DNA of 64,000 bases from an uncultured Candidatus Saccharibacteria bacterium. GTDB lineage: Bacteria > Patescibacteriota > Minisyncoccia > Phycocordibacterales > Phycocordibacteraceae. The notes beneath the pieces are model-generated. The model was not told the DNA's origin, did no database searches, and saw only the letters and a list, made by a program, of their open reading frames with translations. Positions 3,174-63,924 of the stretch are shown here, in pieces (the stretch's first letter is position 1; every line of letters starts with the position of its first letter). The stretch is taken from positions 921-64,920 of the forward strand of contig CAZWLE010000002.1 in the NCBI GenBank assembly GCA_964634305.1, given 5' to 3'. The translations under genes were made by a program, and so were the position numbers.

Positions 3174-3178
3174 CCTCA

Positions 3179-7094: not shown

Positions 7095-7109
7095 CGGTAT
7101 ACTACGTGT

Positions 7110-8777
7110 ATGGATAACCCGGAACGGGTAACGTACTTTGCGGCAACGGATACACGCGGCAAGCGTGTGCCGTTTGGTATTAAGGAAAAAGACCGTGCGC
7201 GTCACATGTACGTTATTGGAAAGACGGGTATGGGTAAATCGACCATGCTCGAGAACATGGCAATTCAAGACATCCAAAACGGAGAAGGCATTTCGTTCAT
7301 TGACCCGCACGGTTCTACCGCTGAAAAACTGCTTGAGTACGTTCCGGAACACCGCATCAATGATGTTGTGTATTTCGCCCCGTTTGATCTCGACCATCCG
7401 ATTGCCTTCAACGTGATGGAGGATGTGGGGTACGACAAACGTCACCTCGTCGTGTCGGGCCTCATGGCGACCTTCAAGAAGATTTGGGTGGACGCGTGGA
7501 GCGCTCGTATGGAGTACATCCTCTCGAACACCCTCCTTGCGCTGCTGGAGTACCCTGATGCAACCCTTCTCGGGGTGAACCGTATGTATGTCGACAAGGG
7601 CTATCGAAAGAAAGTCGTCGATAACGTTAAAGACCCTGTCGTGAAGGACTTCTGGGTAAAGGAGTTCAACACGTATACCGACCGTTACACCCAAGAGGCA
7701 ACGCCGGCTATTCAGAACAAGATTGGTCAGTTCACGAGTAATCCTTTGATTCGTAACATCATCGGCCAGCCGAAGTCGTCGTTTGATATTCGTGATCTCA
7801 TGGATCAGAAGAAGATTCTCATCATGAATCTTTCGAAGGGACTGGTAGGAGAAACGAACATGAAGCTTCTCGGCTCGATGCTCACGACGCGCATTTTCCT
7901 TGGCGCTATGAGTCGTGCGGATGTAGCGGCTCGCGACATGTCACGATTGCCTAATAGTTTCTTTTTTGTGGACGAGTTCCAGAACTTCGCGAACGATACG
8001 TTTGCAGAAATTCTCTCTGAGGCGCGTAAGTACAAACTTAACCTTACGATTGCGCACCAGTACATCGAGCAAATGGAGGAAGAGGTACAGGCAGCCGTCT
8101 TTGGTAACGTCGGTACAACCGTGACGTTCCGTGTTGGTCCGTTTGATGCAGAAACACTGGAGACCGTGTTTTCACCTGAGTTCGAACAAGAGGACCTGGT
8201 GAATCTTGGCTTTGCGCAGATTTACCTGACGCTGATGATTGATGGCATTGGGTCACGACCGTTCTCTGCCCTCACTCTGCCGCCTATTGAGCCGCCGCGA
8301 CGTACGTTTAAGAAGGAGGTGGTGGAAGCGTCCAGAGCGCGCTTTGCGACGCCGCGTGAGAAAATAGAAACCGCTATCTACGATGAGCTCTCACTCATTA
8401 TGGATGCGACGGTTGAAGCAGCGCCACCACCACGACCAAAATGGGACGGACAGAAAAAGAAGAAACCGCAGCAGCAAGGTGGCGGCGGGGGAGGTGGTGA
8501 GAAAAAGAAACCCGCACCACCAGCTCCTTCTGCGCCGTCGCAGGATTTGCGTGCTGCTATTGAGGCGCTCACGAAGGACACAAAGCAGCAAGAGGCGCAC
8601 AAAGAAGCGGAGAAGCGTGAAGAGCTCAAAGAGACGATTGCACACGTCATTCCTCCTCCTGCTCCGCGTCCTACGCCGCCTCCTGCGCCCCAGCAGTCCG
8701 TCCCTCCTCCTCAGCCGAAGCGTGCAGGATTTGAGGTGCCTGAGGAAGAATTGAAGGCTATTTTTGAGGAGAAATAG
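7110..8777 (+). CDS. TraD/VirD4/TrwB-like (type IV coupling protein/DUF87) P-loop ATPase with a disordered Pro/Gly/Lys-rich C-terminal tail.
   Basis: Walker A VIGKTGMGKST, then FIDPHG (TrwB-like) and a FFVDEF Walker-B-like motif. The last ~120 aa are low complexity (KKKKPQQQGGGGGGGEKKKPAPPAP...PPPAPRPTPPPAP). Confidence 0.55.
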   Translation: MDNPERVTYFAATDTRGKRVPFGIKEKDRARHMYVIGKTGMGKSTMLENMAIQDIQNGEGISFIDPHGSTAEKLLEYVPEHRINDVVYFAPFDLDHPIAFNVMEDVGYDKRHLVVSGLMATFKKIWVDAWSARMEYILSNTLLALLEYPDATLLGVNRMYVDKGYRKKVVDNVKDPVVKDFWVKEFNTYTDRYTQEATPAIQNKIGQFTSNPLIRNIIGQPKSSFDIRDLMDQKKILIMNLSKGLVGETNMKLLGSMLTTRIFLGAMSRADVAARDMSRLPNSFFFVDEFQNFANDTFAEILSEARKYKLNLTIAHQYIEQMEEEVQAAVFGNVGTTVTFRVGPFDAETLETVFSPEFEQEDLVNLGFAQIYLTLMIDGIGSRPFSALTLPPIEPPRRTFKKEVVEASRARFATPREKIETAIYDELSLIMDATVEAAPPPRPKWDGQKKKKPQQQGGGGGGGEKKKPAPPAPSAPSQDLRAAIEALTKDTKQQEAHKEAEKREELKETIAHVIPPPAPRPTPPPAPQQSVPPPQPKRAGFEVPEEELKAIFEEK

Positions 8778-50800: not shown

Positions 50801-53800
50801 TCTGTGTCTGCGGGAACGGGGATTGGTTTTACTGGCACGCCAGGGGCGCTGGTTGGTGGAACGGCACTCACCATAACGAACACCGGAGTTACCTCGCTCT
50901 CTGGCACTACTAATCAGATTACTGCTTCTGCAGGTACAGGCGCTGTAACCCTTTCTATCCCGTCTCTCTTCTCCATACAGCAGGCATCAACGACGATGTT
51001 GTCATCAAATGGTCCTTTCTTTGTCGGTACCACCTCAACGACAACCATCTGGGGTAATGCAACATCGACGTTCTCAGGCGGCATCAATTTGACTAATGGT
51101 GGATGCTACGCCATTGGCGGAACGTGTATTGGTGCACTGGGTGCATCCGGTACCGTTAATAACGGTACAACAGGTCAGATTCCGTACTACGCTGCAAACG
51201 GAAATATTCTTACTGCCACCTCAAGTATCTTTATTGCAGCTAGTAGTGACGTAGGTATTGGAACGAACGCGCCTACTAACTACGGTGCAGGATATAGAAC
51301 ACTTGCGATAGATGGTGCAGCGTCGGGTGTGCTTGATGTGATGAGTAACGGTACGCTTTCCGGAACCCTCTATAACGATGGTTCGACGTTCCGTGTAGGA
51401 AATAGGAACCCAAGTGCATTTGAGCTTATTACTGACAATACACCGCGCCTTACCATAAGCGGCGGTGGTGATGTCACCATAAACGGTGGTTCGCTCACCA
51501 TCGGCACCCTCTCAGGCCTTTTGAAGGCAACGAACGGTCTTGTCTCCGCTGCCACCGCAGGCACCGACTACATCGCAGGGGGCGCAGGCGCTGCCACCTC
51601 TTCTGTCTCCTGTGCGGGTACCGCGTCCTGTACCAGCTTTGTCGCGTTCTCTGCAACCCCTATTACGATTACGGGCACCGGTCTTTCTGCATACGATGCG
51701 TGGACGCATCCCGCAGCAGGGCAGTCAGCAACGACGTCACTTATTCTTCTTGACGGCAACGCCTCAACCACACAGCTCTCTGCAACGCGTGCGTATTTTG
51801 GTGGTACGGCCACTTCAACGTTCACCGCTACCGGCGCACTTGGTATTGCCACTACCTCTCCTCAGGGATTACTGGAAATAGGCAATAACGATACGGGCAC
51901 CATTGGCGCATACATCACCAACGCGAATACGTCTATTGGTACGCCCCGAGCCTTACTCTCTATTCGTAATAACTACGCTGCTACCGGTCTCAACCTCTAT
52001 GCTCTAGGTTCTAGTCACTTTAATAACGGACGATTCCGCCAAGATGGCGCGCTCATAGAAGCTGGTTCTAGCCTCTCTGGTGGTCTCTCAATAGCAACAG
52101 AGACGACTGCGCCGATACGTTTCTATACTAATGGTGATAACGAACGTCTCCGTATTACAGAAACAGGACTCGTTGGTATTGGTACCACCTCCCCTCAATT
52201 CCTTCTTCAGCTAGCGGCTGCGACCAGCCCTCAACTCACGCTCTCAGACGGCTCCTTGACCGCTGCACCGTTCAATTTCCGTGCAATCAATAATACCCTC
52301 TATCTCTCAACGTCTTCTCCGACGACGTTCGCTACTACCTCGACTGCATTTGCCTCATTCAACAATACAACTGGCTCTACCAGTCTCCTCAAACTTGATG
52401 TTACGGGCAGTGCTACCTCATCTTTCGCTGGAGGTATTAATCTTACGACTGGCTGCTACGCCATCAACGGCACTTGTTTGCCAACCACTGCTGGTCTTGC
52501 GTCATACGACGCCTGGACGCATCCCGCAGCAGGGCAGTCAGCGACCACGTCTTTGATGTTGTTCAACGGTAATGCATCAACGACTCAGCTCTCTGCAACG
52601 CGTGCGTATTTTGGTGGTACGGCAACGACCACTATCACTGCCGCAGGCTTTGTGGGTGTCGGCTCCTCAACTCCGTGGGCACAGCTGTCAATCAATCCTA
52701 CGAGTGCAAATGGTTCCGCGCCGTCGTTTGTAATTGGTTCGTCTACGGGTACTCGATTTGTAGTCAGAAACGACGGTGCGGTCGGTATTGGTACTGCTGC
52801 GCCAACTGACGCACTGTATATCCAAGACCCTAATGGAAGAGGAATGACCATTAATCAGGGTTCTATCAGTCTCTTAAATCCATCAGGAAACGCCGGACGC
52901 CTTTCCTTTAATGGCGGTAGTGACACGAGCCGATTCTGGTTTAGTCCGAGCCACGAACAAAACTACATCTCATTTGACGATGTAGGTGATGGATATTCAC
53001 ACGTACTTGCAATTGAGGGAGGAGCAGGAACAGATACAGGACTGCTGTACTTCGACTCTAGTGAAAATCTGGGAGTTGCGACCAGCTCCCCATACGCGCG
53101 TCTCTCGGTCTGGGGCAATTCGACGGGGAAAATCTTTGAGGCAGTCACTGCTGCTTCCTCAAGCGCTCTGTCTGTCTCTGCAACTGGGTTTGGTACGACG
53201 ACCGTGTCAGGTCTTACGATTTCGGGTTCGGCAACCTCTACGTCGAACGTTGGTTTCAACATCACCACTGGGTGTTATGCCATAAACGGGACGTGTATCT
53301 CTGGGGGCGGAAGTGGCCTCTCTTCATACGACGCCTGGACTCACGCGTCTATCTATCAGTCAGCAACGACATCGATGATGGGCTTTGGTACGACGACGCC
53401 ACGATGGGCACTCCAAGTTGCGTCGTCAACCGCGCCGCAACTCACGCTTTCTGACGCTACTGGTGGTCATTGGTCATTCCGTTCTATTAATGGCAACCTC
53501 TACATCGCGACCTCAAGTGCTACGACCTTCGCGACTACGTCAACTACGGCACTGACGATTAACACGGTAGGCAATATAGGTATTGGTAGTAGTTCTCCAT
53601 GGGGTCAGCTTTCTATCAATGCGAACGGTGGCGTCACTGGTTCTAATCCTCTCTTTGCTATCGGTTCGTCGACATCAAATCTCCTTGTAGTTGATTACGC
53701 GGGTCGCATGGGACTTGGAACCACGTCGCCGTATGCGAAGCTCTCGGTCGTTGGTGAGACCGTATCTACCTTCTTTACAGCAACGTCGACGAGCGCCACT

Positions 53801-56800
53801 TCAACGTTTGCGGGCGGGTTGAATGTTGGCTCAGGAGCACTCACGCATGACTTTACGTCAGGCGTGACGTCGATAGGCAATCTTGCTATAGGCGCAATGA
53901 CGTTTGATACCAACTCAGGTGTTATTTCCTGGGTTGATATGCCTGTTACTTCTACTGCTTCTGCCGGCACGGTCCAAAGCTATAGTGCGCAGTTGGATGG
54001 TACTTCGGTGCTTACCGTCTATGCGGTTTCAGATGGCGCTGGAGGTATCGCCTCGACCTCTGTGGGTATTTCTTCATCAACACCGTGGGGTATGTTCTCG
54101 GTTGAGCAGACAAACGGTACGACCTCACCTGTCTTTGTTGTAGGTGATCAGGGAACCTCTACGCCGCATCTGTATATCGGTGCAAACGGAAGGGTAGGTG
54201 TTGGTACGACCTCGCCATGGGCCCGTACGTCACTCAATGCTCCTGCAGGGGAAGCAGCATTTGCTATCGGTTCTTCGACACGCAACCTCTTCTATGTAAC
54301 ATCGCTTGGCACCACCACCATTGGCCGTGGCCTCGACATTATTGGCGCCGTTGCTACTTCCTCTTCCAATGTGGGTTGGAATATCACCACTGGATGTTAT
54401 GCCGTTAATAACACGTGTCTTTCAGGTGGCCTCTCCTCATACGACGCATGGACCCACGCGTCTATCTATCAGTCAGCAACGACGTCGATGATGGGCTTTG
54501 GCACCACGACCCCACGATGGGCACTCCAAGTTGCGTCATCCACTGCGCCGCAGCTCGCACTCTCTGATGGTTCGCTTACTTCAAATCACTGGACTTTCCG
54601 CAACGCAGGTGGCGGTCTCTTTATCGGTACCTCCTCACCGCTTACCTTCGCCACAACCAGCATCTCCGCACTCACCATTAACGCAAGCGGCAACCTTGGT
54701 ATCGGTACCACCTCACCGTCCTCACGACTTACCGTTGCAGGCTCCGGTTTCTTTGAAGGCTCCAACAACTATATAAACTTCGCAACGACAACAGGTGCGA
54801 ACGGCTACGGCTTCCGCGATAACGGCGGTGTTATGGAGTTTAAGAACATGGGCGGCACGTGGCAGGGCGTCACAACGGCAACAACAGGGCCGAGTTTCTC
54901 AGTACATAAAAACAGCTCTGATCAGACGGTCACTGCTGGTATCGATACGCTCCTCACGTGGGCTACTGAGGAATATGATACGAACAACAATTTCAATCTC
55001 GGTACTGGACGGTTCCAGCCGACGGTCCCTGGTAAATACGTCATTTACTTGCAGGTTCGTACTACTAACGGTAGTTCAGCGGTTGCATCGATATATAAGA
55101 ACGGCAGCTTGTATAAACTGGGAATTGTCAGCAGTGCTCTTATTGCAAATGTGACTGCTGTTGTCGACATGAATGGTAGTACCGATTATGTTGACGCATA
55201 CGTAACAAACACAGGTGGCACGACTATCAGCGGTAACATCACGCAAACATATTTTAGCGGCATTATGGTTGCTCCACTGAACAACAACGTCGCCACCAAC
55301 CTTAACCTCCAATACGATGGCACGCAGACTACGCAAGTGGACCAGACCAAGTTCTTCGGTCTCGGTACGTCGACGCCATGGGGTCAGTTTGCTATAAATC
55401 CGCTCGCATCCAACGGTAATGCTCCGTCGTTCGTTATTGGTTCTTCGACTGCTACCAACTTCATTGTTACAAATGCAGGAAATGTCGGTATCGGAACCAC
55501 AAGCCCTGCAAGTAAGCTCCACATTTTTGCGAGCACTGGAGCAGCACAGCTTGACTTTGATGCATCGGCAAGTCAATTCCGTGGCTTCACCGTTAAAACT
55601 GGAAACTCTACACGTTGGGCGGTGGGCGGTGGTACAAGTGTTGCAGAAAGTGGAAGTAACGTTGGGTCGAACCTGTTCATAGATCGTTACTCCGACTCAG
55701 GTTCCTATCTTGGCACTGCGATGACCTTTATTCGCAGTAGCGGTTATGTAGGTATCGGTACTACGACCCCCGCGTGGAATTTAAACATAGCCGACGCTAC
55801 GAGATCGCAGCTTACGCTTTCTGACGGATCTGTAACTCAGAACCCATGGAGCTTCCGCAGTATTAACGGCAACCTATATATTGCAACCTCGTCACCCTCT
55901 ACGTTCGCAACGTCGACCGTTGCTGCGCTCACTATAAATAGCAACGGTACGGTTCTTGTAGGTAATGGTCTTGGCAAACTCACCATTGGTACCTTGGACC
56001 CGGTCTACACCGTCAACGGTACGGCGTACGCAACGTACATGGCAGGCATGATTGGTGTAAAGGAAGAAACAACCGGTAATGCCGTTATTGACACACCCCT
56101 TACCGCTGAAGATGGCAGTACGGGATACGTCGCCGTACTCGACTTTGATGAATTAGAGCCAGGCAGTGACTTGTGGCTCTTCTCGCAAACGACTCATATT
56201 CGCAAGAACATTGATAAGCTCGTCGTGCTTCTCACTGCAGAAAATGGTGGGAAGGTTTGGTATGAGATAGACAAGGCAGAGCGTAAGGTCTACCTCTTAG
56301 CCGATAGACCAACGCGTGTCTCGTATCGTATGACGGCGCCGCGGTTTGATTCTGAATCATGGACAAACTTCAACCATGACGGCGTCATCGGCTTTACTCC
56401 ACCGTCTGATGATTTAACGGTGTACTTCACTGACGAACATGCGTTGTCGTTTGGTAATGCAAACCTGGTCTCCGGCACGTCAACGCTCGCAACGTTGCTT
56501 GAGGAATATGACGAAGAAGGTGAAGAAGAACTCAAGCCATGGACCGCGGCACTCGTTGAGGCAAGTGACGGGTTGAAGACCGCTATGGATGACCTGTCGA
56601 ATCAGGTGATTGAAGTCATGCACGGCGCTCAGTACTTTGCTGACGGTATCTTTAAGCGCATCTTTGCGCAGGAAGTATATACAGACAAAATCTGTGTGAC
56701 CGACGCAGAGGGAGAGACGTGTCTGACTCGTGCGCAGCTTAACCAGCTCTTATCAGGCGCAGCGGCCTCTGGCGGTGGCAATACTAGTGGTGGTTCTGGT

Positions 56801-56983
56801 GATACTTCTGGCGGAGACACAGGCGGCGGAGATACCGGTGGTGGCGAAGGCGATACTGGCGGAGGTGATACGGGTGGTGACACCGGCGGCGGAGATACCG
56901 GCGGAGGCGACTCTGGCGGAGATTCCGGAGGTGGCGGAAGTGAGGGTGGGGACTCGGGCGGCGGAGAGGGTGGCGCTCCTTAA
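41864..56983 (+). CDS. Giant (5,039 aa) repeat-rich cell-surface protein with an N-terminal HTH_17-like domain and a single TM anchor. The ~4,850-aa predicted extracytoplasmic region is rich in Ser/Thr/Gly/Ala/Asn and built from beta-solenoid-like modules. It ends in a conserved C-terminal domain, a Cys pair, and an acidic Gly/Asp/Thr tail.
   Basis: A single uninterrupted 15.1-kb ORF. The N-terminus is paralogous to the 40490 protein. The TM is AVAALIAVVSVGSGLVAA (aa ~135–155). Repeated modules include LTGILKATxGVVSAATAGTDY, LYGGTGxTTAP, SYDAWTHPAAGQSATTSL and GCYAINGTC. The tail is GGDTGGGDTGGGEGDTGGG... Confidence 0.85.
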   Translation: MSLLLDSNLISTRDASALSGYHSDYLARLCREEKIVGSRIGRSWVLDRASLDAFIRDQELAKKEHAVALTRQREQEYREAQKVHETIAVVEAEQASETPVEAPEVVSVPVTTPVSAPERSYVPIPSPYAELHPIRNSAVAALIAVVSVGSGLVAAEARIVEHVARISVENVAIASDIGYEALASAATATLAFETELGRSIISGVDTLATLTRAEHQSDTAASIRFAYDAGALLHAPTLQTIPEALYGAQLSIGTTLIGTSDAILAAHHTGTNAWVEGSDIVPRRVIAAIYGVGDEFQRVALLAPHAAATTADTAIVALAGETRTVANNAVDAISSSRDVFARAFNTRLVEPRATLAAVPHEDTLGPARALALFTYETLNSFFDATSRTLAMLFAPLAPNVAYAPELTVPGTGTTSVSRQVVEVSRVVNEITNVTYSSPITYVYGGVTMEYVRAAIENLRDDVADADYGSGDGGLADITGSSIEELSDVGTMAKTWGDLLFWDGTEWSNLATSSLGITGSGIPGGAPGYVQYNVGGNFGGDAAFTFDAAADRLSFTYGSTTAFSTGFLNATSAVIDTLSSTVATVTSLIATNATTTNATSTNLTALNSFALGADRITDLTGSGLTVTAGALAVDDVTPAMLQAADFGDFTCNGTSCSFDADTVSDSELDYGTVTLTDFTNDAGFITGIGAFSIEDLSDVAAMTESYGNLLSWNGSAWTNIATSTLNIALSNTTGILPISRGGTGTSTVPTYGQLLVGDGLGGYALLATSSLGISGSGGTPGGLTGQVQFNSAGTFAGDTGFTYDAAADRLTVTYASSTAFSSIYASSTNVFAGNLTVGSLTGILKATGGVVSAATAGTDYENPLTFAYPLTRSVNTVSLAFGTTTTNTWVHQIFSSLVATNASSTNATTSQLAVTSLPSQLLRTDGTGRLAGTTIGTGLTFDGTTLSATGGGGTGNVSTSSSETAGQVPYWTTTAGSPARLGSVATTTFAVSGPFNVSGSLGSLIGGTNATISYYGLATTSNISQGQVLYGTSASGVASVATSTPALSTAFSYSGTLGSFVGGASGTLSLANNGVALTNLAQIAANTVLANPTGAIGNVQAIATSTFFGTGTGGYVLAWNNGAPTWVGTSSIQNGVAAIGPAGQTQTGTVLIATSTSGTDITVTATGGTITFNIPSASASARGLLTSTDWNTFNNKISSTSLSGGTGISYNSGSGVITNTGVTSLSGTTNQITASAATGAVTVSLPGLVAFPNAYTASYGTTTYASSTALSSVYASSTNASFGNLSVGTLTGPLQAVNGVVSASSTLSVVYGGTGWNAVQSGALLYGNGAGRLATTTQGTGGQVLAWLNGIPTWTATSSIQNGVSSVQQSFGAAQTGAITLATSSDTNVLLSITNSGGTFTFTPSWTGTLAYGRGGTGTTTAPAGQLLYGGTTAYQSVATSTVSAGTGIGFTGTPGYLVGGTNLTITNNGVTSISGTTNQITASAGTGAVTLSLPGLVAFPNAYTASYGTTTYASSTALSAAYASSTNLFVGNFTLGTLNGPLQANNGVVSATTTIGAIYGGTGQSSYAAGDLLYADSATSLARLPVSTNGLVLKLVGGLPSWQPDLTTGGGGGAGAWSTTTDSLAIYPSDTSDVVIIGASATSTTGSIFEVAGRSYFSNTLSIGTTSGSSLFRLAVQGNGLFSGNLSTANLTATGTVSTANLTATAATTTYLGINNETFTDLTGTGLQNVGGALTINATGDWTGTFDGQEGTYYLNRANHTGTQLASTISDFDGAVNTYIAGSTTIPKTYSANTFTGAQVFSSGVTIGTLNGPLQANNGVVSATTSVGVLYGGTGLTTAPSYGQILVGNSSGGYTLTATSSLGLVTSAVTAIGPAGQAQTGPTVTFATSSTAYNGLTASTTITATGNTITFANTLAGLLGVAGGGTGSTTLGGILTGNGTGQVTSATVSAPLSFSGNTLSISQANGSTNGYLSSTDWNTFNNKISSTSLSGASVISYTSGTGVITTTGGTFGAGNYVFPSALTVQGASSFQNASTTNLSANTLAVGGTGTTSVSATGALTTPSLTIGSLTGILKATAGLVSVATGGTDYENPLTFVYPLTRAVNSISLAFGTTTANTWGAQQTFSGLFATNASTTNATTTSLGINNETFTDLTGTGLQNVGGALTINATGDWTGTFDGQEGTYYLNRANHTGTQLASTISNFDATVNAYIHGSTTIPKTYTANTFTAAQVFSGGVTIGTLNGPLQANNGVVSATTSIGVLYGGTGLTTAPTYGQILVGNSSGGYTLTATSSLGLVTSAVTAIGPAGQTQTGPTITLATSSTAFNGLTASTTITGTGNVITFSNTLAGVLGVAGGGTGSTTLGGILTGNGTGQVTSATVSAPLSFSGNTLSISQANGSTNGYLSSTDWNTFNNKISSTSLSGGTGISYNSGSGVITNTGVTSLSGTTNQITASAATGAVTLSLPGLVAFPNAYTATYGTTTYASSTALSTVYASSTNAFFGNLSVGALTGPLQALNGTVSASSTLSVAYGGTGWNSIQANAVLYGNGAGRLATTSAGTNGQVLALVNGVPTWVATSSINNGVSSIRQSFGAAQTGAITLATSSDTNVLLSITNSGGTFTFAPSWTGQLAVARGGTGAGSFTSGQLVYGAGTGALQSVATSTFAVSGPFTTSGTLGSLVGGTNATVTYYGLATTSAISQGQVLYATGAAGVASVATSTPTLSAAFSYSGTLGSFVGGVNGTLSLATNGVALNNLAQIAANTVLANPTGATGNVQAIATSTFFGTGTGGQVLTWNNGVPQWVATTTYANGTGISTSFANGQLTITNTGVTSLSGTTNQITASAGTGAVTLSLPSLVAFPNAYTATYGTTTYASSTALSSVYASSTNVFAGNLSIGALTGILKATAGVVSTAVAGTDYVAGGAGAATTTLSFSGPFTTSATPVVFGSSPITTTYYGLATTSAISQGQVLYGTSASGVASVATSSVSAGTGIGFTGTPGALVGGTALTITNTGVTSLSGTTNQITASAGTGAVTLSIPSLFSIQQASTTMLSSNGPFFVGTTSTTTIWGNATSTFSGGINLTNGGCYAIGGTCIGALGASGTVNNGTTGQIPYYAANGNILTATSSIFIAASSDVGIGTNAPTNYGAGYRTLAIDGAASGVLDVMSNGTLSGTLYNDGSTFRVGNRNPSAFELITDNTPRLTISGGGDVTINGGSLTIGTLSGLLKATNGLVSAATAGTDYIAGGAGAATSSVSCAGTASCTSFVAFSATPITITGTGLSAYDAWTHPAAGQSATTSLILLDGNASTTQLSATRAYFGGTATSTFTATGALGIATTSPQGLLEIGNNDTGTIGAYITNANTSIGTPRALLSIRNNYAATGLNLYALGSSHFNNGRFRQDGALIEAGSSLSGGLSIATETTAPIRFYTNGDNERLRITETGLVGIGTTSPQFLLQLAAATSPQLTLSDGSLTAAPFNFRAINNTLYLSTSSPTTFATTSTAFASFNNTTGSTSLLKLDVTGSATSSFAGGINLTTGCYAINGTCLPTTAGLASYDAWTHPAAGQSATTSLMLFNGNASTTQLSATRAYFGGTATTTITAAGFVGVGSSTPWAQLSINPTSANGSAPSFVIGSSTGTRFVVRNDGAVGIGTAAPTDALYIQDPNGRGMTINQGSISLLNPSGNAGRLSFNGGSDTSRFWFSPSHEQNYISFDDVGDGYSHVLAIEGGAGTDTGLLYFDSSENLGVATSSPYARLSVWGNSTGKIFEAVTAASSSALSVSATGFGTTTVSGLTISGSATSTSNVGFNITTGCYAINGTCISGGGSGLSSYDAWTHASIYQSATTSMMGFGTTTPRWALQVASSTAPQLTLSDATGGHWSFRSINGNLYIATSSATTFATTSTTALTINTVGNIGIGSSSPWGQLSINANGGVTGSNPLFAIGSSTSNLLVVDYAGRMGLGTTSPYAKLSVVGETVSTFFTATSTSATSTFAGGLNVGSGALTHDFTSGVTSIGNLAIGAMTFDTNSGVISWVDMPVTSTASAGTVQSYSAQLDGTSVLTVYAVSDGAGGIASTSVGISSSTPWGMFSVEQTNGTTSPVFVVGDQGTSTPHLYIGANGRVGVGTTSPWARTSLNAPAGEAAFAIGSSTRNLFYVTSLGTTTIGRGLDIIGAVATSSSNVGWNITTGCYAVNNTCLSGGLSSYDAWTHASIYQSATTSMMGFGTTTPRWALQVASSTAPQLALSDGSLTSNHWTFRNAGGGLFIGTSSPLTFATTSISALTINASGNLGIGTTSPSSRLTVAGSGFFEGSNNYINFATTTGANGYGFRDNGGVMEFKNMGGTWQGVTTATTGPSFSVHKNSSDQTVTAGIDTLLTWATEEYDTNNNFNLGTGRFQPTVPGKYVIYLQVRTTNGSSAVASIYKNGSLYKLGIVSSALIANVTAVVDMNGSTDYVDAYVTNTGGTTISGNITQTYFSGIMVAPLNNNVATNLNLQYDGTQTTQVDQTKFFGLGTSTPWGQFAINPLASNGNAPSFVIGSSTATNFIVTNAGNVGIGTTSPASKLHIFASTGAAQLDFDASASQFRGFTVKTGNSTRWAVGGGTSVAESGSNVGSNLFIDRYSDSGSYLGTAMTFIRSSGYVGIGTTTPAWNLNIADATRSQLTLSDGSVTQNPWSFRSINGNLYIATSSPSTFATSTVAALTINSNGTVLVGNGLGKLTIGTLDPVYTVNGTAYATYMAGMIGVKEETTGNAVIDTPLTAEDGSTGYVAVLDFDELEPGSDLWLFSQTTHIRKNIDKLVVLLTAENGGKVWYEIDKAERKVYLLADRPTRVSYRMTAPRFDSESWTNFNHDGVIGFTPPSDDLTVYFTDEHALSFGNANLVSGTSTLATLLEEYDEEGEEELKPWTAALVEASDGLKTAMDDLSNQVIEVMHGAQYFADGIFKRIFAQEVYTDKICVTDAEGETCLTRAQLNQLLSGAAASGGGNTSGGSGDTSGGDTGGGDTGGGEGDTGGGDTGGDTGGGDTGGGDSGGDSGGGGSEGGDSGGGEGGAP
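45481..45669 (+). repeat. Intragenic repeat patches: 45481–45572 matches 49135–49226 with two mismatches (each at a codon third position, eye-aligned), and 45601–45669 matches 46348–46416 perfectly (69 bp).
   Basis: Direct alignment by eye of the quoted DNA stretches. Confidence 0.7.
47001..47755 (+). repeat. Copy A of a ~1.29-kb-period intragenic direct repeat; mosaic of perfectly identical and synonymously diverged patches relative to copy B.
   Basis: 47001–47146 is identical to 48291–48436 (146 bp). 47619–47755 is nearly identical to 48909–49045. The intervening segments encode the same peptide with many synonymous differences. Confidence 0.75.
48291..49045 (+). repeat. Copy B of the ~1.29-kb-period intragenic direct repeat.
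   Basis: See copy A; the offset between copies is 1,290 nt. Confidence 0.75.
53330..53460 (+). repeat. Near-identical ~130-bp patch repeated at 54437–54567 (period ~1.1 kb) inside the SYDAWTH/GCYAxNxTC module series.
   Basis: The stretch tacgacgc(c/a)tggac(t/c)cacgcgtctatctatcagtcagcaacgac(a/g)tcgatgatgggctttgg... is present in both. Confidence 0.65.
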
Positions 56984-56986
56984 TAT

Positions 56987-59338
56987 ATGCGATACCTATC
57001 CTTCATTCTCATCACGATAGTGCTGGTAGCAGGAGGTGTCGCATACCTACGTCCTGAGCATATTAGTCAGCTTGTTGCTCCGCCGCTCGTGGTGACAAAA
57101 ACCACGACTATTCCGAGTGCACCCTCGACTGCTACTACCAGTATTAATCACTACCATTACGAGACGGTAGGGGTTTCCTATGACTATCTTGAGCGCCGGC
57201 TTGCTGAACTCATGGTTGAACGAACTATCATTATTGATAGACGTAGTGAAAGCGGCAGTAGACGTGGTGGTTCGAGCGGTGGGTCTGCGACGGTTGATGA
57301 CGTCACGCCAGACCAACTTGCTGCTGCTGATTTTGGTGACTTTACCTGCAACGGTACTACGTGTGATTTAGATATAGAGAGTTATGGCCTCGAGGACCTT
57401 TCTGATGTGGGAGCGATGACTGAAACATTTGGTGATGTACTTATGTGGAATGGCACTATGTGGACCAATGTTGCTACGTCATCGCTTGGTATTGGGGCAG
57501 GTAGTGGTTCGCCAGGCGGTGCAAACACGCAGGTCCAGTTTAATAACGGTGGCGTGTTTGCGGGTGATGCTGGATTCACCTACGACGCTGCCGCAGACCG
57601 TGTTACCGCAACGTATGCATCTACGACTGGCATTAGTGCATCATATGCATCATCAACGAACGCATTTTTCGGTGCACTTACGCTTGGAGGTGACACACTG
57701 ACTGATTTCACTGGCGCAGGTCTCTCTGTTTCAAGTGGCGCGCTCACTATATCTACCGCGGGCGACTGGACGGGACTCTTTGATGGTCAGGAGGGTAGTT
57801 ACTATCTTGCTAATTCATTTAGTTCGACATCGGCTACGCATTTCGTGCACTCTTCAACAACGATTCCAAAGACGTATACCGCCAATACATTTACCAGCGC
57901 TCAAGTGTTTAGTGGTGGAGTAACGATTGGAACGTTGAACGGACCGCTCCAGGCAAATAATGGTGTTATTTCCGCTACCACCTCTGTTGGTGTGTTGTAT
58001 GGAGGTACAGGACTTACGACGGCACCGACGTACGGACAGGTACTTGTCGGTAATGCCTCTGGAGGGTATACGCTTACGGCGACGAGTTCGCTTGGTCTTG
58101 GAGGCAGTTCCGGTCTCACTTCCTATGATGCCTGGACGCATCCAGCAGCAGGGCAGTCTGCGACAACCTCACTGATGTTGTTTAATGGGAACGCGTCCTC
58201 GACACAGTTCTCTGCGATGCAGGCGTACTTTGGCGGCACCGCAACGACGACCTTCACCGCAGCAGGGTTCCTTGGTGTCGGTTCCTCAAGTCCATGGGCA
58301 CAACTCTCGATTAATCCGACAAGTGCAAACGGCAGTGCACCAGCGTTTGCTATTGGAAGCTCAACTGCAACAAGTTTTGTTATCACAAACGCAGGTAATG
58401 TTGGTATCGGATCGACCTCACCGGCAGCGCGCCTTGGCGTTGCGGGCAACATCTATACAACAGGTGATTTAGTGCTTGGTGGTGGTACCGGAAAACTCAC
58501 CGTCGGTACGGTTGACCCGGTCTACACGGTCGACGGCGTGAACTACGCAACGTATGTCTCGGGCATGGTGGGTATTAAAGAAGAGGTGACGGGTGCCGCA
58601 GATATTCATACACCAGTCACGGCAGATGATGGCAGCTCAGGCTACGTTGCAGTGCTCGATTTTGATGATGAGCTTCCGGGAAGTGACTTGTGGCTCTTTG
58701 CACAAGCAACACATATCCGTAAGCATATAGACCGTCTGATAGTGCTCCTCTCCGCAGAGAACGGTGCACGAGTCTGGTATGAAATCGACGAAGCAGAACG
58801 AAAGGTGTATCTCCTTTCGGATACCCCAACCCGCGTGTCGTACCGTATGACGGCACCACGCTTTGATACCGCCGAGTGGACGAACTACAACCTTGATGGC
58901 ATCACGGGCTTTAAACCGCCGTCAAACGACATAGGGGACTATTTCTCTGAATTGTTCACACTGTCGTTTGGATCTACGACCGCGTATCTCTCTGACGGTC
59001 TTACGGAAGCGCTTCGCACATGGTTTGCAGACGCAACAAACGGTATTGGGTCCATGATGGCGAATGTGTTTAGCGCTAAGGAGAAAATCTGTGTCGATGG
59101 CGAATGTCTTACGAAGGATGACATTCGAGTACTACTTCGTCTCGTGGGAGAGGAACGGGGAGGAGCGGGCGGCGGAGAACCACCAGTGGAACCAGAGGAC
59201 CCACCGGTTGAAGAAGGGCTAACCCCGACTCCAGAGACCCCCCTTCCTGAAGAAGAACCTGAACCTGAGCCAAAAGTGCCAGAAGAGCCACCAAGTACTC
59301 CCGAAGAACCTGCAGGTGAGACGCCGCCTGGTCCGTAG
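56987..59338 (+). CDS. 783-aa paralog ('mini' version) of the giant protein. It has an N-terminal signal-anchor TM, the same repeat modules and the same conserved C-terminal domain, and ends in a Pro/Glu-rich acidic tail.
   Basis: TM is MRYLSFILITIVLVAGGVAYL. VDDVTPDQLAAADFGDFTCNGTTC matches VDDVTPAMLQAADFGDFTCNGTSC in the giant protein. The C-terminal ~170 aa (KLTVGTVDPVYTVDGVNYATY...RVSYRMTAPRFD...) are ~70% identical to the giant's C-terminal domain. The start codon is 4 nt after the giant gene's stop. Confidence 0.8.
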   Translation: MRYLSFILITIVLVAGGVAYLRPEHISQLVAPPLVVTKTTTIPSAPSTATTSINHYHYETVGVSYDYLERRLAELMVERTIIIDRRSESGSRRGGSSGGSATVDDVTPDQLAAADFGDFTCNGTTCDLDIESYGLEDLSDVGAMTETFGDVLMWNGTMWTNVATSSLGIGAGSGSPGGANTQVQFNNGGVFAGDAGFTYDAAADRVTATYASTTGISASYASSTNAFFGALTLGGDTLTDFTGAGLSVSSGALTISTAGDWTGLFDGQEGSYYLANSFSSTSATHFVHSSTTIPKTYTANTFTSAQVFSGGVTIGTLNGPLQANNGVISATTSVGVLYGGTGLTTAPTYGQVLVGNASGGYTLTATSSLGLGGSSGLTSYDAWTHPAAGQSATTSLMLFNGNASSTQFSAMQAYFGGTATTTFTAAGFLGVGSSSPWAQLSINPTSANGSAPAFAIGSSTATSFVITNAGNVGIGSTSPAARLGVAGNIYTTGDLVLGGGTGKLTVGTVDPVYTVDGVNYATYVSGMVGIKEEVTGAADIHTPVTADDGSSGYVAVLDFDDELPGSDLWLFAQATHIRKHIDRLIVLLSAENGARVWYEIDEAERKVYLLSDTPTRVSYRMTAPRFDTAEWTNYNLDGITGFKPPSNDIGDYFSELFTLSFGSTTAYLSDGLTEALRTWFADATNGIGSMMANVFSAKEKICVDGECLTKDDIRVLLRLVGEERGGAGGGEPPVEPEDPPVEEGLTPTPETPLPEEEPEPEPKVPEEPPSTPEEPAGETPPGP

Positions 59339-59356: not shown

Positions 59357-61696
59357 ATGCTGGTACGATTGCTATACTACGGACATATGGTCAGCAGAGC
59401 AGCAGTCCTCATGGTGCTTCTAGGTATCGTCGGTACCACGTTTGCGCCGTCGCTTCACGCACAGGAAGCACCCGTACCCGAGCTACTGACGAGTACGCTT
59501 TCCAGAGGCGACGAATCAGCAGAGGTGCGATTGTTGCAGGAGTGGCTTGGTATCGAAGCACCAAACGGCATCTATGGTGATGCAACCGTTGCTGCGGTGG
59601 AGGCATACCAAGAAGAACAGCGGGTGATACTCCTTAGTCCATCCGGTGACCTTGGGTATGGCATTGTTGGACCGCTTACGCGCGCAAGTCTCAATAGTGA
59701 ATTCTCAAACACGCAAGGCGGTACGCCGCTCGTCGAGGCAGCATACGGTGATGCAGCAAAATTCGATGGCACCTCATTTGTACCGTTTACCGAAGCAACG
59801 TACGAAGTAAGCGGCACACTGACGAGTCGTATGGATGTATGGGTAAAGCCGACTGCACTCACGGATTACGACACCATACTCTTCACTAACGAAGACAATC
59901 ACCGGATTGGCCTTACGGAGAATGGAAAGATATTTGCTGATGCACCGGCTGGTCGTGCTATCACCAAACGCGCGTACATAACGGCAGGGGAGTGGCAGCA
60001 TCTTTCTATTCTCTATACCCGTGATGATGCGGTGTTCCTCCATAACAATCAGGTGGTTGAAATAGTCCCGCTTACGACGGTTGGTGTCATTCCAACCTTC
60101 TTCGAGCGATTCTTTAAATCTGCATCGGATTCCATAGTGTCCATTTTTACTCCAAAGACGAAAATGACACCTACGACGATGCTTGAGCGTAGTGAATATA
60201 CCGGTGAAGCACCAAAAGCACCTGGCATCTTTGGCTCCATCGTTTCTTTTGCTAAAGGTCTTTTTGGGGGTGATACCGGCACGACTCCCTCTGAGCCGGT
60301 CCCTGCGGCCGGTCCGGTAGTGCTTGAGCCAGCACCAGTAGTGGTAGAGCCGGCGGTTGAACCAGCGCCCGTTCTCCCGGTGATTCCAACCAAGCCGCTC
60401 ACATCGCCATTACAGCCAAAGCCGTCTGACACCGCACCGCTTATTACGACAACGGTTGTGACGGTACCCGCGACAACGACTACTAGTACAAGCACCGCTA
60501 CTTCTACGACGACCGTCATTGCAAGTGCAGGCAGCACTACCACTGTATCGACTACGAGCGGGTCAAAAGGTTCCTCAGGTGGTGGTTCAGTCAGAAATTC
60601 AACGCCTGTTATTAAGCTCGTAGGTAGTTCGAAAGTAACGATACAGCTTGGTGAAATTTATACCGACCCAGGCGCCTCTGCCGAAGATAAAGAAGATGGT
60701 GATATCTCAAATAACGTGGTCATTGGTGGTGATGTTGTTGATCATAATGATGCTGGCACCTATATCATCACGTATAACGTCACTGACTCGAGTGGTACAA
60801 AAGCAAAAGAAGTAAAACGCACCGTAATCGTTAAAGCGCCACCAAGTCTCTCTCAGGGAGAACAGGAGCCAGAATATCCGCTTGGACCTGCAGGACAGTC
60901 AGTGTCACTTTCCGTTTCAAACGCCTCAGGCGCAGATCCGAAATTCTCATCGGTTGATATCTCGCCGCTTCATGTGTACGTAGGTGATACACAAACCTTT
61001 ACAGTGAAAGTCAGCTCGGCTAGCGGAATTGATTCGGTGACTGCAGTGACGAAACTCGATACCTCAACGCATACGCTTCCACTCGTTGAGACATCACCTG
61101 GTACGTACTCAGCATCATGGGTGGTGCATGACACACACACGCAGATTTACCGCACCAAGTTCACTGCCGTAAACGGGAACGGCGATACGAACTCGGTAAC
61201 TATGGCATGGTCCGATCCGTGTTCAGGTATTACGCAAGGCAGTAATGGATCGTTGAGTGCCGATTGTGCTGTTTCGATTGTAGACGGTCTTGATTCCGGA
61301 ACGTTAACTATTCCCGCAGGCCGTACTTTGACCATTAATAACGGCGGTACGTGGGCATTTAATCCCGGCACTTCTATTATCGTTGACGGCGCAATCGTAA
61401 AGGCAAGCGGTGGGCAGTTGAAGAAGGGATACCTTTACTATGTAGGTGCCACCAATGCTTCCGCAAATACGGGGACCATGGTCTTCGATACAGCGTCGAG
61501 CTTGTCAGGCCATGTACGTGTTGGTACCTACACGCAAGCGTCTTACTACAGCCAAGGCTACTATCAGGGGTATTACTACGGCCAGGGATATTACCAAGGC
61601 TATTATTATGGCCAAGGCTACTACTACGGTCAGGGCTATTACTATGGCCAAGGGTATTATGAATCTCAGTACTACTCTCAGGTGATGTACAAATAA
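59357..61696 (+). CDS. Exported multidomain protein: signal/TM, a PG_binding_1-like domain, a LamG/ConA-like domain, a Pro/Thr/Ser-rich linker, an Ig-like (DUF5011-like) domain, a beta-rich region, and a C-terminal Tyr/Gly-rich (GQGYYY)n tail.
   Basis: LSRGDESAEVRLLQEWLGIEAPNGIYGDATVAAVEAYQ (PG_binding_1-like). DGTSFVPF...GEWQHLSILYTRDDAVFLHNNQVV (LamG-like). PVIKLVGSSKVTIQLGEIYTDPGASAEDKEDGDIS...YNVTDSSGTKA (Ig-like/DUF5011-like). C-terminus SQGYYQGYYYGQGYYQGYYYGQGYYYGQGYYYGQGYYESQYYSQ. Confidence 0.8.
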   Translation: MLVRLLYYGHMVSRAAVLMVLLGIVGTTFAPSLHAQEAPVPELLTSTLSRGDESAEVRLLQEWLGIEAPNGIYGDATVAAVEAYQEEQRVILLSPSGDLGYGIVGPLTRASLNSEFSNTQGGTPLVEAAYGDAAKFDGTSFVPFTEATYEVSGTLTSRMDVWVKPTALTDYDTILFTNEDNHRIGLTENGKIFADAPAGRAITKRAYITAGEWQHLSILYTRDDAVFLHNNQVVEIVPLTTVGVIPTFFERFFKSASDSIVSIFTPKTKMTPTTMLERSEYTGEAPKAPGIFGSIVSFAKGLFGGDTGTTPSEPVPAAGPVVLEPAPVVVEPAVEPAPVLPVIPTKPLTSPLQPKPSDTAPLITTTVVTVPATTTTSTSTATSTTTVIASAGSTTTVSTTSGSKGSSGGGSVRNSTPVIKLVGSSKVTIQLGEIYTDPGASAEDKEDGDISNNVVIGGDVVDHNDAGTYIITYNVTDSSGTKAKEVKRTVIVKAPPSLSQGEQEPEYPLGPAGQSVSLSVSNASGADPKFSSVDISPLHVYVGDTQTFTVKVSSASGIDSVTAVTKLDTSTHTLPLVETSPGTYSASWVVHDTHTQIYRTKFTAVNGNGDTNSVTMAWSDPCSGITQGSNGSLSADCAVSIVDGLDSGTLTIPAGRTLTINNGGTWAFNPGTSIIVDGAIVKASGGQLKKGYLYYVGATNASANTGTMVFDTASSLSGHVRVGTYTQASYYSQGYYQGYYYGQGYYQGYYYGQGYYYGQGYYYGQGYYESQYYSQVMYK

Positions 61697-61738: not shown

Positions 61739-62947
61739 ATGATTGAGCGGCGCCGGCTCCTTTTTTCACTCGCATTCCTTCTGGTTGTAGGGTCTATAGG
61801 CGCTGTCGGGCTTTGGTACGAACGACAGCAGCAGACCTACCCTGAGATGGCCGAGCTTGCTGCAAGCAACCGTACATTCCAAGAATATTCGGATTATTTC
61901 CGCCGCCTCTCGGAAGAGAAAGGTGCTGAATATGCCTATCAGGTATTACTGCGTGCACCTCTTGCGACAGGGACTGATTTGCACCTTCTTGGTCATGTCG
62001 TCGGCGATATGCTCTATAAGCAGCAGGGCATTAAAGGCATCAATAGTTGTACACAGGATTTTCGTAACGCGTGCTCGCATTCAGTGGTTATTGGCATACT
62101 GAGTGAACATGGTGAAGGCGCGTTGAGTGAAATAGCAGCAACGTGCAAGAAGGCACCAGGAGGGCAAGGCGCATATACGATGTGCTTCCATGGTCTTGGA
62201 CACGGTGTCCTTGCGTACAACGGATATCGCCTTGAGCGCGCCGTAGAGATGTGCAAATTAACTGGCACGCCTGAATACGGGTATCAGGAATACGCACAAT
62301 GTGTCGGTGGCGCCAGTATGGAGATGGTGGCAGGCGTACACGATCGAGAAGTATGGCAGAGCCAGTACGGGAATTATTTTAGTGACACCGACCCGCTCGC
62401 TCCATGTAACCAAACATATATGGATGACGCGGTACGTCCATTTTGTTACATGCACCTGACGCCACGGCTGTTTGAAGCAGCAGGTATGGACCTGGGTGCA
62501 CCCGACCCGTCAGTGCTTCCAGAAGCTTTTTCCTATTGTGATGCCATTCCTGTTACCGATGAGCGAGATAGAGCAGCGTGCTATGGCGGGTTTGGTAAGG
62601 AATTCATTGTGCTTGCACAATGGCGCGATATTCGCCAAATAAGTGAAACCGACGAGGCAACGCTCCGTACCGTACGCGAATGGTGTGCGTACGCGGGTGA
62701 CGAGACGGGAGAAGATGACTGTAACTCGTCAGCGCTCGACTCGTTATATTGGGGAGGAGAGATTGAACCAGACGCCGCGTTTCGTTTTTGTGCGATTGCA
62801 GAAGGAGGTGAACAGGCTGCGTGTTACGACAAACTTGCGACGCTGACTAGCTATTTCCTCCCGAAAGGATTGAAGCGTCATGCGGTGTGTGAACGATTGC
62901 CGGAAGAATATCAGGAACGATGTAAAGCTATGGATACCGGCATATGA
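61739..62947 (+). CDS. Cys/His-rich membrane-anchored exported protein, unknown family; paralog of the next gene.
   Basis: N-terminal TM LLFSLAFLLVVGSIGAVGLW. 18 Cys. Shared motifs with 62944 include LLGHVVGDMLY / LLGEAIYD and CFHGLGHG / CQHGLGHG. Confidence 0.7.
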   Translation: MIERRRLLFSLAFLLVVGSIGAVGLWYERQQQTYPEMAELAASNRTFQEYSDYFRRLSEEKGAEYAYQVLLRAPLATGTDLHLLGHVVGDMLYKQQGIKGINSCTQDFRNACSHSVVIGILSEHGEGALSEIAATCKKAPGGQGAYTMCFHGLGHGVLAYNGYRLERAVEMCKLTGTPEYGYQEYAQCVGGASMEMVAGVHDREVWQSQYGNYFSDTDPLAPCNQTYMDDAVRPFCYMHLTPRLFEAAGMDLGAPDPSVLPEAFSYCDAIPVTDERDRAACYGGFGKEFIVLAQWRDIRQISETDEATLRTVREWCAYAGDETGEDDCNSSALDSLYWGGEIEPDAAFRFCAIAEGGEQAACYDKLATLTSYFLPKGLKRHAVCERLPEEYQERCKAMDTGI

Positions 62948-63924
62948 CGGCCCGCACGTATATCCGCACAGCCCTGGTGATTGGCCTTCTTGCTCTCGGT
63001 ATCTATGCGATGGTGCAGTATGTTCGCCCAGAACCAGTTGTCAGTTCTGTGTCTGCTACGCGTGAGGGTATTGAAGCGTTGGTAAAAAAAGAAGGTCCTG
63101 CAGATGCCTACGTAGTGCTCAAGAAACAGTACGCGGGTACCAACTACGATTTACAGCACAACGTATCGCATCTTCTTGGGGAAGCTATTTACGATGCTGA
63201 CGGTCTTGCGGCGGTGCGCGTATGCGATGCAGAGTTTAACTACGGGTGCTATCACGGCTTCTTTAAGAGAGCGGTATCCGAACAGGGCGTCAGTGTTCTA
63301 CAGGAGCTCGATGGCGAGTGTGCGCAGTTTACTGACGGACGTTCGTCACAATGCCAGCACGGACTTGGTCACGGACTCATTGAGTTCTTTGGCATGAAAG
63401 GACTACCGAAGGCACTGGAAGCATGCGCAACCCTTCCACAACCAGACCCAGTCGCGGGATGCTCGTCGGGTGTCTTCATGGGTTACAACTTACGATTCGA
63501 GCCAACGGGGAAGGATGGCTTTATAACCGTGGCGCGTCCGATTGCGTCTGGTGAATCGGCATACACTCCATGCGATACGGTAGCTGAATCGTTTGCCGAA
63601 TCCTGTTACTACCAACTACCACAGTGGTGGAACCAGGTGTTCGATAAGGACTTCTCAAAATTTGGGTCACTCTGTGCGGCTCTCTCAAGTGACGTGGTGC
63701 GGTCGCGATGCTTCCAAGGCATCGGCAACATCGCAGCCTCGTCTGGAGGATATGACGTCGCGCGTACCAAGGAACTCTGTGCACTCATGCCAAGTGCTGA
63801 AGGAGAGGCAACGTGTGTGGTCGTTGCAAGTTGGGCATTTGAGAAAAATATCTTTGACCACGAGAAAGCACTCGAGATGTGTGCAGACGTTGCGCCAGAC
63901 GCAAAAACCTATTGTCCTGTATGA
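62944..63924 (+). CDS. Cys/His-rich membrane-anchored exported protein; paralog of 61739.
   Basis: N-terminal TM ALVIGLLALGIYAMV. Conserved CxHGLGHG motif and a similar Cys spacing. ATGA start/stop overlap with the next gene. Confidence 0.7.
   Translation: MTARTYIRTALVIGLLALGIYAMVQYVRPEPVVSSVSATREGIEALVKKEGPADAYVVLKKQYAGTNYDLQHNVSHLLGEAIYDADGLAAVRVCDAEFNYGCYHGFFKRAVSEQGVSVLQELDGECAQFTDGRSSQCQHGLGHGLIEFFGMKGLPKALEACATLPQPDPVAGCSSGVFMGYNLRFEPTGKDGFITVARPIASGESAYTPCDTVAESFAESCYYQLPQWWNQVFDKDFSKFGSLCAALSSDVVRSRCFQGIGNIAASSGGYDVARTKELCALMPSAEGEATCVVVASWAFEKNIFDHEKALEMCADVAPDAKTYCPV

Follow-up and report, generated by a model that had tools for sequence, protein, structure and literature searches.

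A tyrosine-rich low-complexity repeat array, apparently conserved in secreted surface proteins of Patescibacteria

Low-complexity repeats rich in Tyr, Gly and Gln are known from eukaryotic structural and prion-like proteins. The low-complexity domain of FUS consists of [G/S]Y[G/S]Q repeats in which aromatic stickers are carried on Gly/Ser/Gln spacers, and the elastomeric proteins include wheat high-molecular-weight (HMW) glutenin, with its PGQGQQ/GYYPTSPQQ units, and spider MaSp2, with GPGQQ/GPGGY. Here, we explored a Tyr-rich C-terminal tail composed of [GSAT][QE]GYYY-type units in a 779-aa surface protein encoded by a 64,000-nucleotide stretch of genomic DNA (hereinafter, the window) from contig CAZWLE010000002.1 of an uncultured Candidatus Saccharibacteria bacterium. 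This organism belongs to the Patescibacteria, a group that accounts for much of bacterial diversity. Members of this group spend their lives attached to other cells, yet very little is known of their surface biology. The tail is a bacterial, extracellular variant of the eukaryotic repeats and represents a real, conserved, selected and, apparently, previously undescribed Tyr/Gly/Gln low-complexity module of patescibacterial secreted proteins.

Across seven arrays from the family of the 779-aa protein, Tyr accounts for 47% of the residues, Gly for 22% and Gln for 14%. Tyr runs of three residues (51 cases) and of two residues (27 cases) alternate with the spacers GQG, AQG, QG, TQG, SQG and GEG, with a repeat period of 6 irregularly mixed with 4. 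With this composition of predicted disordered, uncharged, polar sequence, the arrays fall among prion-like segments of the FUS type, with which they share the repeated Tyr in a Gly/Gln context and the tolerance of length change. Unlike the domains of the FUS family, the arrays are extracellular and bacterial, carry Tyr in runs of 2-3 rather than singly and contain about 47% Tyr versus roughly 12% in FUS; there is no sequence homology between the two. The likeness to glutenin and MaSp2 lies in the short tandem Gly-Gln-Tyr units, including GYY, the secreted structural context and the variable copy number, whereas the arrays lack proline, are far richer in Tyr, span 35-170 aa instead of hundreds of residues and are appended to folded adhesin-like domains. 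Resilin, the Bacillus spore-coat proteins CotC and CotU, and the mussel foot proteins Mfp-3 and Mfp-5 similarly combine high Tyr and Gly contents in extracellular, material-forming or adhesive proteins; the arrays differ in that no oxidase or tyrosinase was found to be associated with them in the conserved gene cluster and, compared to the mussel proteins, in that they are not rich in Lys and Arg. The collagen-like region of Bacillus BclA, an example of the variable-length repeats of surface filaments, is likewise a simple tandem repeat with a copy number that differs widely between close relatives, but the array is not a (GXX)n triple helix, is predicted to be disordered and is terminal instead of forming a stalk between domains. 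For components of functional amyloids (curli, Fap, TasA and chaplins), there is no Pfam or NCBIfam match in the cluster, and the predicted structure of the tail contains no beta structure. Dityrosine cross-linking and the amyloid or prion-like behaviour brought up in the original prediction, which had been made from the DNA sequence of this locus, are no more than analogies for the tail.

The tail occupies aa 725-779 (61529..61693, plus strand), as delineated from the open reading frame (ORF), TRF, composition, a motif scan and AlphaFold2 (AF2) modelling. The ORF at 59357-61696 ends with SQGYYQGYYYGQGYYQGYYYGQGYYYGQGYYYGQGYYESQYYSQVMYK followed by the stop codon, exactly as originally quoted, although its Tyr content, put at ~55% at that time, is 21/48 or 44%, rising to ~49% within a core of 35 aa, whereas Tyr makes up 3.3% of the remaining sequence; no other Tyr-rich stretch was found among the ORFs of the 64-kb window. 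A conserved junction, YTQASYYSQ, leads into the array of QGYY and QGYYYG units, which begins at 61550 and is closed by the cap ESQYYSQVMYK. The degenerate DNA pattern for YYG[QE]GYYYG[QE]GYY occurs twice in the window, compared to 0.00 matches expected from shuffled sequences. Each of the four QGYYY units is encoded by a different DNA sequence, with a third-position identity between units of 0.33-0.43, which is about random, the Tyr codons TAT and TAC are used at a ratio of 10:11, the longest exactly repeated DNA word is 13 nt, and TRF detects 76-79% matches between units. Identical peptide units combined with randomised synonymous sites imply that the array is old at the DNA level and that the peptide is maintained by purifying selection; the codon pattern thus indicates that selection rather than recent slippage accounts for the repeat, as had been proposed. 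The tail is predicted to be intrinsically disordered: in the AF2 model, aa 724-779 show a predicted local distance difference test score (pLDDT) of 22-25 and no secondary structure. We also considered a regular solenoid fold of the hexapeptide- or pentapeptide-repeat type, which was rejected given that the 4- and 6-residue units are irregularly mixed and the AF2 model is structureless in this region. The array falls outside all Pfam and NCBIfam models. In the papers searched, neither GQGYYY nor YYYGQG occurred, every match to GYYY was an antibody complementarity-determining region 3 (CDR3) sequence, and there was no account of Tyr-rich repeats in Patescibacteria. A protein search with the tail alone yielded only 40 word-sharing candidates, none at E <= 10, and was uninformative, probably because of the HMMER composition correction.

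About 20 orthologues of the 779-aa protein were identified, the full-length relatives showing 38-51% identity, and all of these are confined to metagenomes and to metagenome-assembled genomes of Patescibacteria or "uncultured Candidatus Saccharibacteria". Orthologous ORFs were extracted and anchored on the conserved ...G[HY]xRxxxY[TSA]Q motif, which brought the segments into register for comparison. A Tyr-rich segment, 8-108 aa long, is present at the same position in every orthologue but P0009, so that the original prediction is not refuted by a lack of the tail in orthologues. The length of the segment varies with the presence of a C-terminal HINT domain, which is considered below. In HINT-bearing members (14 sequences, ~11 of them distinct), it measures 8-35 aa, with a median of 15, as in ASYYSQAYYEAYYESFY or GSYYSEGSYYTEPGY, compared to 12-108 aa, with a median of 52, in members lacking HINT, namely, 12 aa in P0004, 35 in L010, at least 49 in L015, where the contig ends, 52 in the window, 81 in L012, 106 in L088 and 108 in L091. 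One member, L013, contains both a 35-aa array and HINT. In a rough neighbour-joining (NJ) tree, the basal branches lack HINT and carry long arrays. Exact repetition at the DNA level reaches at least 59 nt in L088 and 44 nt in L091, and hence these long arrays have undergone recent duplications in their lineages. The tail of the 779-aa protein is an expansion of this conserved segment, the nature of which is retained while its length is hypervariable, with a freely varying copy number. Where the DNA of an array is more uniform, an assembly can break, as is the case for L015 (CAYQYW010000007.1). This contig carries two family copies, at about nt 1000-3650 and 5848-8469, which are separated by homologues of the two genes located downstream of the window gene (p402 and p326, see below), and it ends inside the array of the second copy.

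The array is not limited to this family. A degenerate motif scan of 241 million metagenome records retrieved 9 contigs, whereas the same type of scan of viral contigs gave 0 matches. Two of the nine contigs encode further orthologues of the 779-aa protein (L088 and L091), and the remaining ones encode at least five unrelated proteins, all with signal- or anchor-like N-termini. In L085/L093, a Cys-rich domain is followed by a ~120-aa array and then by Ig and PKD domains; in L086/L087, an unknown domain precedes a ~170-aa array and an Ig-like domain; in L089, a beta-solenoid module like that of the 779-aa protein (E 3e-12) is followed by other segments, the array and a Cys-rich end; and in L090 and L092, the array comes directly after an N-terminal hydrophobic segment. 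On the L092 contig there is, in addition, a sequence for the C-terminal module that is shared by the two surface proteins encoded upstream of the window gene (E 2e-24). Among the distant relatives of the modules, P0137 and P0141 carry Tyr-rich tails of other kinds, a 77-aa YSYAY-type tail and a 112-aa GYGYGQGYYY-type tail, respectively. Thus, judging by sequence and position, the [GSAT][QE]GYYY array is a modular element that is reused N-proximally, internally and C-terminally in secreted proteins, and therefore is not an oddity of one peptidoglycan (PG)-binding protein.

In most orthologues (P0001-P0003, P0005-P0008, L011, L013, L014, L016, P0124 and P0128), a Cys and a ~133-aa HINT domain of the bacterial-intein-like (BIL) type come immediately after the Tyr-rich segment. 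This domain scores above the Pfam cut-offs for PT-HINT and Hom_end_hint, and, of the solved structures, the BIL domain 2lwy matches it best (1e-7). Three elements never vary, namely, Cys1, an xxEH block near position 69 and the terminal [VI]HN. HN is followed by A, F, K, I or M but never by Cys, Ser or Thr, so that there is no +1 nucleophile. The same pattern characterises A-type BIL domains; these undergo self-cleavage at the N- or the C-terminus, occasionally splice through an alternative route and, like the domain described here, reside in variable regions of secreted proteins (PMC5874633). The orthologues differ from that precedent in that only 5-9 residues (AKGEIP, KGMHGLPP, KINPP) lie C-terminal of HINT, leaving neither a toxin nor any other domain to be released, and the window protein differs in having no HINT domain altogether. 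Because the stubs after HINT resemble the ends of some relatives lacking the domain (FEFIP, DVIP, DIIP), HINT appears to have been inserted near a C-terminus that was already Tyr-rich. HINT would be expected to excise itself and thereby leave a mature protein ending in the Tyr-rich segment, resembling the form that the window gene encodes directly. A hidden or decayed HINT in the window was considered and rejected: the stop codon of the tail lies only 42 nt from the next conserved gene, p402, a tblastn search of the entire window for a remnant produced nothing better than E 0.15, and there is no Pfam match to HINT in the 779-aa protein. Orthologues with and without HINT, with the cleavage site immediately after the Tyr-rich segment, provide a natural system for the role of a C-terminal BIL domain in a surface protein. 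In one orthologue (P0002), two HINT domains are arranged in tandem with two residues between them.

The gene for the 779-aa protein resides in a conserved, operon-like cluster that also encompasses one or more giant surface proteins and tandem alpha-solenoid paralogues. In the window, the cluster includes, all on the plus strand, the gene for a giant surface protein of 5039 aa (41864..56983); p783, a 783-aa paralogue with the same C-terminal module (56987..59338); the gene in question; p402, which encodes a membrane-anchored, Cys/His-rich alpha-solenoid protein (61739..62947); and p326, a paralogue of p402 (62944..63924), the last two being conserved downstream neighbours. The genes are separated by 3, 18 and 42 nt, with a 4-nt overlap at the end, and promoter and terminator signals are not above chance. 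The C-terminal module of ~300 aa common to the giant protein (aa ~4630-4980) and p783 (aa ~460-720), which contains ..DPVYTVDGVNYATY..GIKEEV.., has no Pfam match. Leaving L015 aside, each of the ten related loci whose sequence extends far enough encodes this module upstream of the family gene; in nine loci it is directly upstream and in L001 it is ~2.9 kb away, whereas in L015 the upstream position is taken by the other family copy and p402/p326 homologues. The suggested co-occurrence with the giant gene in related genomes is thus borne out for its C-terminal module. Downstream, two to five p402/p326 paralogues follow in 12/12 loci for which sequence is available, namely, L001, L004 and L007-L016. 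More than 1100 homologues of p402 were found, all hypothetical, and all the named ones come from Patescibacteria. The AF2 model of p402 (pLDDT 92.8) consists of an N-terminal transmembrane helix and an alpha-solenoid with invariant Cys and His; p402 showed no Pfam, NCBIfam or PDB sequence match and no significant PDB fold match, the best E being 0.06. It looks like a scaffold or binder rather than a recognisable enzyme. The alpha-solenoid contains invariant Cys pairs and a C-x-H-G-x-G-H motif. In L001, an Lnt (apolipoprotein N-acyltransferase) gene (6114-7604, minus strand), oriented opposite to its neighbours, lies between the P0004 orthologue and the p402/p326 array. Elsewhere in the window, a surface-glycan biosynthesis cluster is located at 12896-34121, followed by SecA, Obg and GatB; it includes at least 6 GT4 glycosyltransferases, CofD-like, Acyl_transf_3, a sugar C-methyltransferase, a DegT aminotransferase and, at 31971-34121, a Wzy_C (O-antigen-ligase-like) and TPR protein. 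Judging by its gene content, this cluster could glycosylate Thr- or Tyr-rich segments of surface proteins.

How might such a segment function? The anatomy and distribution of the array make it possible, with a likelihood that we put somewhat short of even, that it serves in the cell envelope as a lineage-specific module, a multivalent aromatic "sticker". Many closely spaced Tyr residues on a flexible Gly/Gln backbone would provide weak, additive pi-pi, hydrogen-bond and CH-pi contacts. In the presumed geometry, the N-terminal end of the 779-aa protein is anchored and the tail is distal; the contacts would then hold this distal end in a common extracellular layer, in which other array-bearing proteins would sit by the same means. 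Candidate partners are other arrays, glycans of the wall or host, and the alpha-solenoid proteins encoded next to the 779-aa protein, and avidity would be tuned by the copy number of the array. We favour this role because it fits every array position seen, whether terminal, internal or membrane-proximal. Counted in its favour are the conservation of the segment together with its variation in length, the saturated synonymous sites, the modular reuse and rarity of the motif, the disorder in the AF2 model, the intact HINT motifs, the relation between HINT and array length, and the retained synteny. A ~47% Tyr repeat that is selected despite a minimal biosynthetic capacity, reused, and located in a cluster with giant surface proteins is unusual, and these features together point to lineage-specific envelope building or sticking to the host. 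Should the array self-associate or adhere, the eukaryotic low-complexity domains with aromatic "stickers" would for the first time have an extracellular counterpart in bacteria, and Tyr-based adhesives or hydrogels could be modelled on a compact natural sequence.

Several points weigh against the sticker role. The orthologue with the 12-aa tail (P0004) is sister to one with a 106-aa tail, and because 12 aa suffice there, a long array is not essential to the family. The relation between HINT and array length is drawn from few independent lineages of a rough NJ tree, the low pLDDT of the tail, coming from a 10-sequence alignment, only weakly supports disorder, and the contigs encoding the other array proteins have been only partly assigned taxonomically. 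Furthermore, with a Tyr content of ~47%, the segment might not act as a reversible sticker but be collapsed, insoluble or covalently modified. A bolder version, which we regard as quite improbable, is that the [GSAT][QE]GYYY arrays form a new class of extracellular assembly domain, in which they would knit secreted proteins into a tyrosine-zipper or hydrogel-like coat or dock onto p402/p326, much as karyopherins bind Tyr-rich low-complexity domains, and in HINT-bearing orthologues a thioester at the Tyr/Cys junction would ligate the Tyr-rich end covalently to a nucleophile of the wall or host, in a Hedgehog-like, sortase-independent mode of surface attachment.

Alternatively, the array could be a passive spacer or elastic stalk that sets the distance or elasticity between parts of surface proteins in the manner of Pro/Thr linkers or of the BclA collagen-like region, its sequence mattering only for stiffness or elasticity. 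Such a role would agree with the internal or membrane-proximal location of the array in L086, L089, L090, L092 and L093, its extremely variable length and a Gly/Gln/Tyr composition that recalls the elastomeric glutenin and silk repeats. However, the array is terminal in the 779-aa protein and at least 8 relatives, where only 5-11 residues follow it, so that there is nothing to space and it cannot be a linker between domains; the 779-aa protein already has a ~170-aa Pro/Thr linker; and a costly 47% Tyr under purifying selection is hard to justify in a spacer, all of which makes this explanation unlikely. Nor does it appear probable that the tail is a substrate for covalent chemistry, its Tyr residues being cross-linked (dityrosine or similar) or O-glycosylated, which would render this part of the envelope insoluble or heavily modified. 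Tyr-rich repeats are cross-linking sites in resilin, spore-coat and plant-wall proteins, and the glycan cluster of the window, with its Wzy_C and TPR protein, offers the only lead for glycosylation, given that Wzy_C-family enzymes include protein O-oligosaccharyltransferases. Against this, that cluster lies 25 kb upstream, beyond SecA, Obg and GatB; no oxidase, peroxidase, laccase, tyrosinase or radical-SAM gene was recognised in the conserved cluster (the search covering 64 kb of genome); and p402 and p326 are alpha-solenoids without an enzyme fold. A Tyr-modifying enzyme was also sought among the conserved neighbours and none emerged, p402 being a confidently modelled alpha-solenoid that lacks Pfam, NCBIfam and PDB sequence matches. 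Moreover, many of these organisms come from groundwater, where oxidants may be scarce.

The history of HINT suggests yet another explanation, in which the Tyr-rich stretch mattered only as the N-terminal flank of HINT and, once HINT was lost, drifted without function and expanded by slippage. The short Tyr-rich junction before HINT in at least 11 distinct orthologues, the predominance of long arrays in members lacking HINT, and the recent DNA duplications in L088 and L091 would all be compatible with such a vestige. Yet the window units retain the same peptide with randomised synonymous sites, a signature of purifying selection, L013 combines a 35-aa array with HINT, the same array occurs in HINT-free proteins unrelated to the family, and the basal branches of the rough tree combine long arrays with the lack of HINT; we accordingly consider this scenario rather implausible. 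Least credible of all, to the point of being negligible, is that the array is an assembly artefact of a low-complexity region: although the orthologous contig L015 ends inside its array, the longest exact repeat of 13 nt makes the window array unique at the k-mer sizes that assemblers use, the frame continues unbroken to the stop codon with the conserved p402 gene starting 42 nt downstream, and equivalent arrays are found in independent assemblies.

With regard to the protein that carries the tail, the sequence and the structural model suggest a secreted, wall-associated, adhesin-like multidomain surface protein of a Patescibacteria (Candidate Phyla Radiation, CPR) bacterium, in agreement with the architecture originally envisaged: a signal peptide, a PG-binding-like domain, a LamG-like sandwich, a Pro/Thr linker, two Ig-like domains and a beta-solenoid. 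The coding sequence (59357..61696, plus strand, as are all the features that follow) begins with ATG, ends with the stop codon at 61694-61696 and has a second possible start at M11 (59387). The AF2 model, built on a 10-sequence alignment, has a mean pLDDT of 55.7. A probable signal peptide (aa 1-35, ...PSLHA/QE; 59357..59461) was called by eye and coincides with an AF2 helix at residues 2-29. At the other end, no NCBIfam match to C-terminal sorting signal models (LPXTG/sortase, PEP-CTERM or GlyGly-CTERM) was obtained for the 779-aa protein, and there is no hydrophobic stretch within its last 55 aa. A role of the tail as a C-terminal sorting signal was rejected because it lacks both a hydrophobic helix and an NCBIfam match, and arrays elsewhere are internal or N-proximal.

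The domains named in the original prediction (PG-binding, LamG and Ig-like) fared differently in the window copy, in which DUF5011 (PF16403) is the sole domain above its Pfam cut-off (68.5 bits versus 27), PG_binding_1 is sub-threshold and LamG is unmatched, the last two being recovered at the family level. The PG_binding_1-like helical domain (aa 55-116; 59519..59704) scores 18.4 bits against PF01471, for which the cut-off is 23, whereas 9/10 family members match at E <= 0.01 (best 5.5e-9), the orthologues P0001 (31.2 bits) and P0008 (28.5 bits) exceed the cut-off, and the family profile matches a PG-binding domain of known structure, 1lbu, in the PDB (6e-4). The low score of the window copy is due to a deletion: 7 residues (LYPEQVV in orthologues) are missing at 59585-59600 (aa ~77-82). 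The next domain is an all-beta LamG/ConA-like sandwich (aa 125-240; 59729..60076; pLDDT 72-89), for which the Pfam scan of the window copy gave no match to Laminin_G_3 (PF13385), as opposed to matches in 7/10 orthologues (best 3.1e-9; P0008, 30.1 versus the cut-off of 27.6); the top Foldseek matches for the model of the 779-aa protein are Ig modules, not LamG. The disordered linker of ~170 aa (aa 242-413; 60080..60595; pLDDT 25-46), apparent from AF2 and the alignment, starts with two conserved amphipathic helices (residues 248-261 and 291-302) and continues with Pro-rich and Thr/Ser-rich stretches. The helices, FFERFFKSASDSIVSIF and GIFGSIVSFAKGLFGG (60098-60262, aa 248-302), are kept across orthologues and might mediate association with the membrane or wall.

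The linker leads to the DUF5011/Bact_surface_Ig-like domain (aa 419-492; 60611..60832), which is matched by PF16403 at 5.1e-19 and by PDB 2kpn at 2.9e-10 and is found in 10/10 family members. A second Ig-like beta-sandwich (aa 516-619; 60902..61213) was identified from the AF2 model and from Foldseek matches to tandem adhesin Ig modules, such as those of SiiE. Immediately before the tail, a small beta-solenoid-like module (aa 630-721; 61244..61519) shows short regular strands in AF2 and the motif DGLDxGxLTIxxGxTLTIN. This module is common to many other surface proteins of Patescibacteria, and an exhaustive search with aa 500-779 returned 616 representatives for the Ig and solenoid region, so that the module is widespread.

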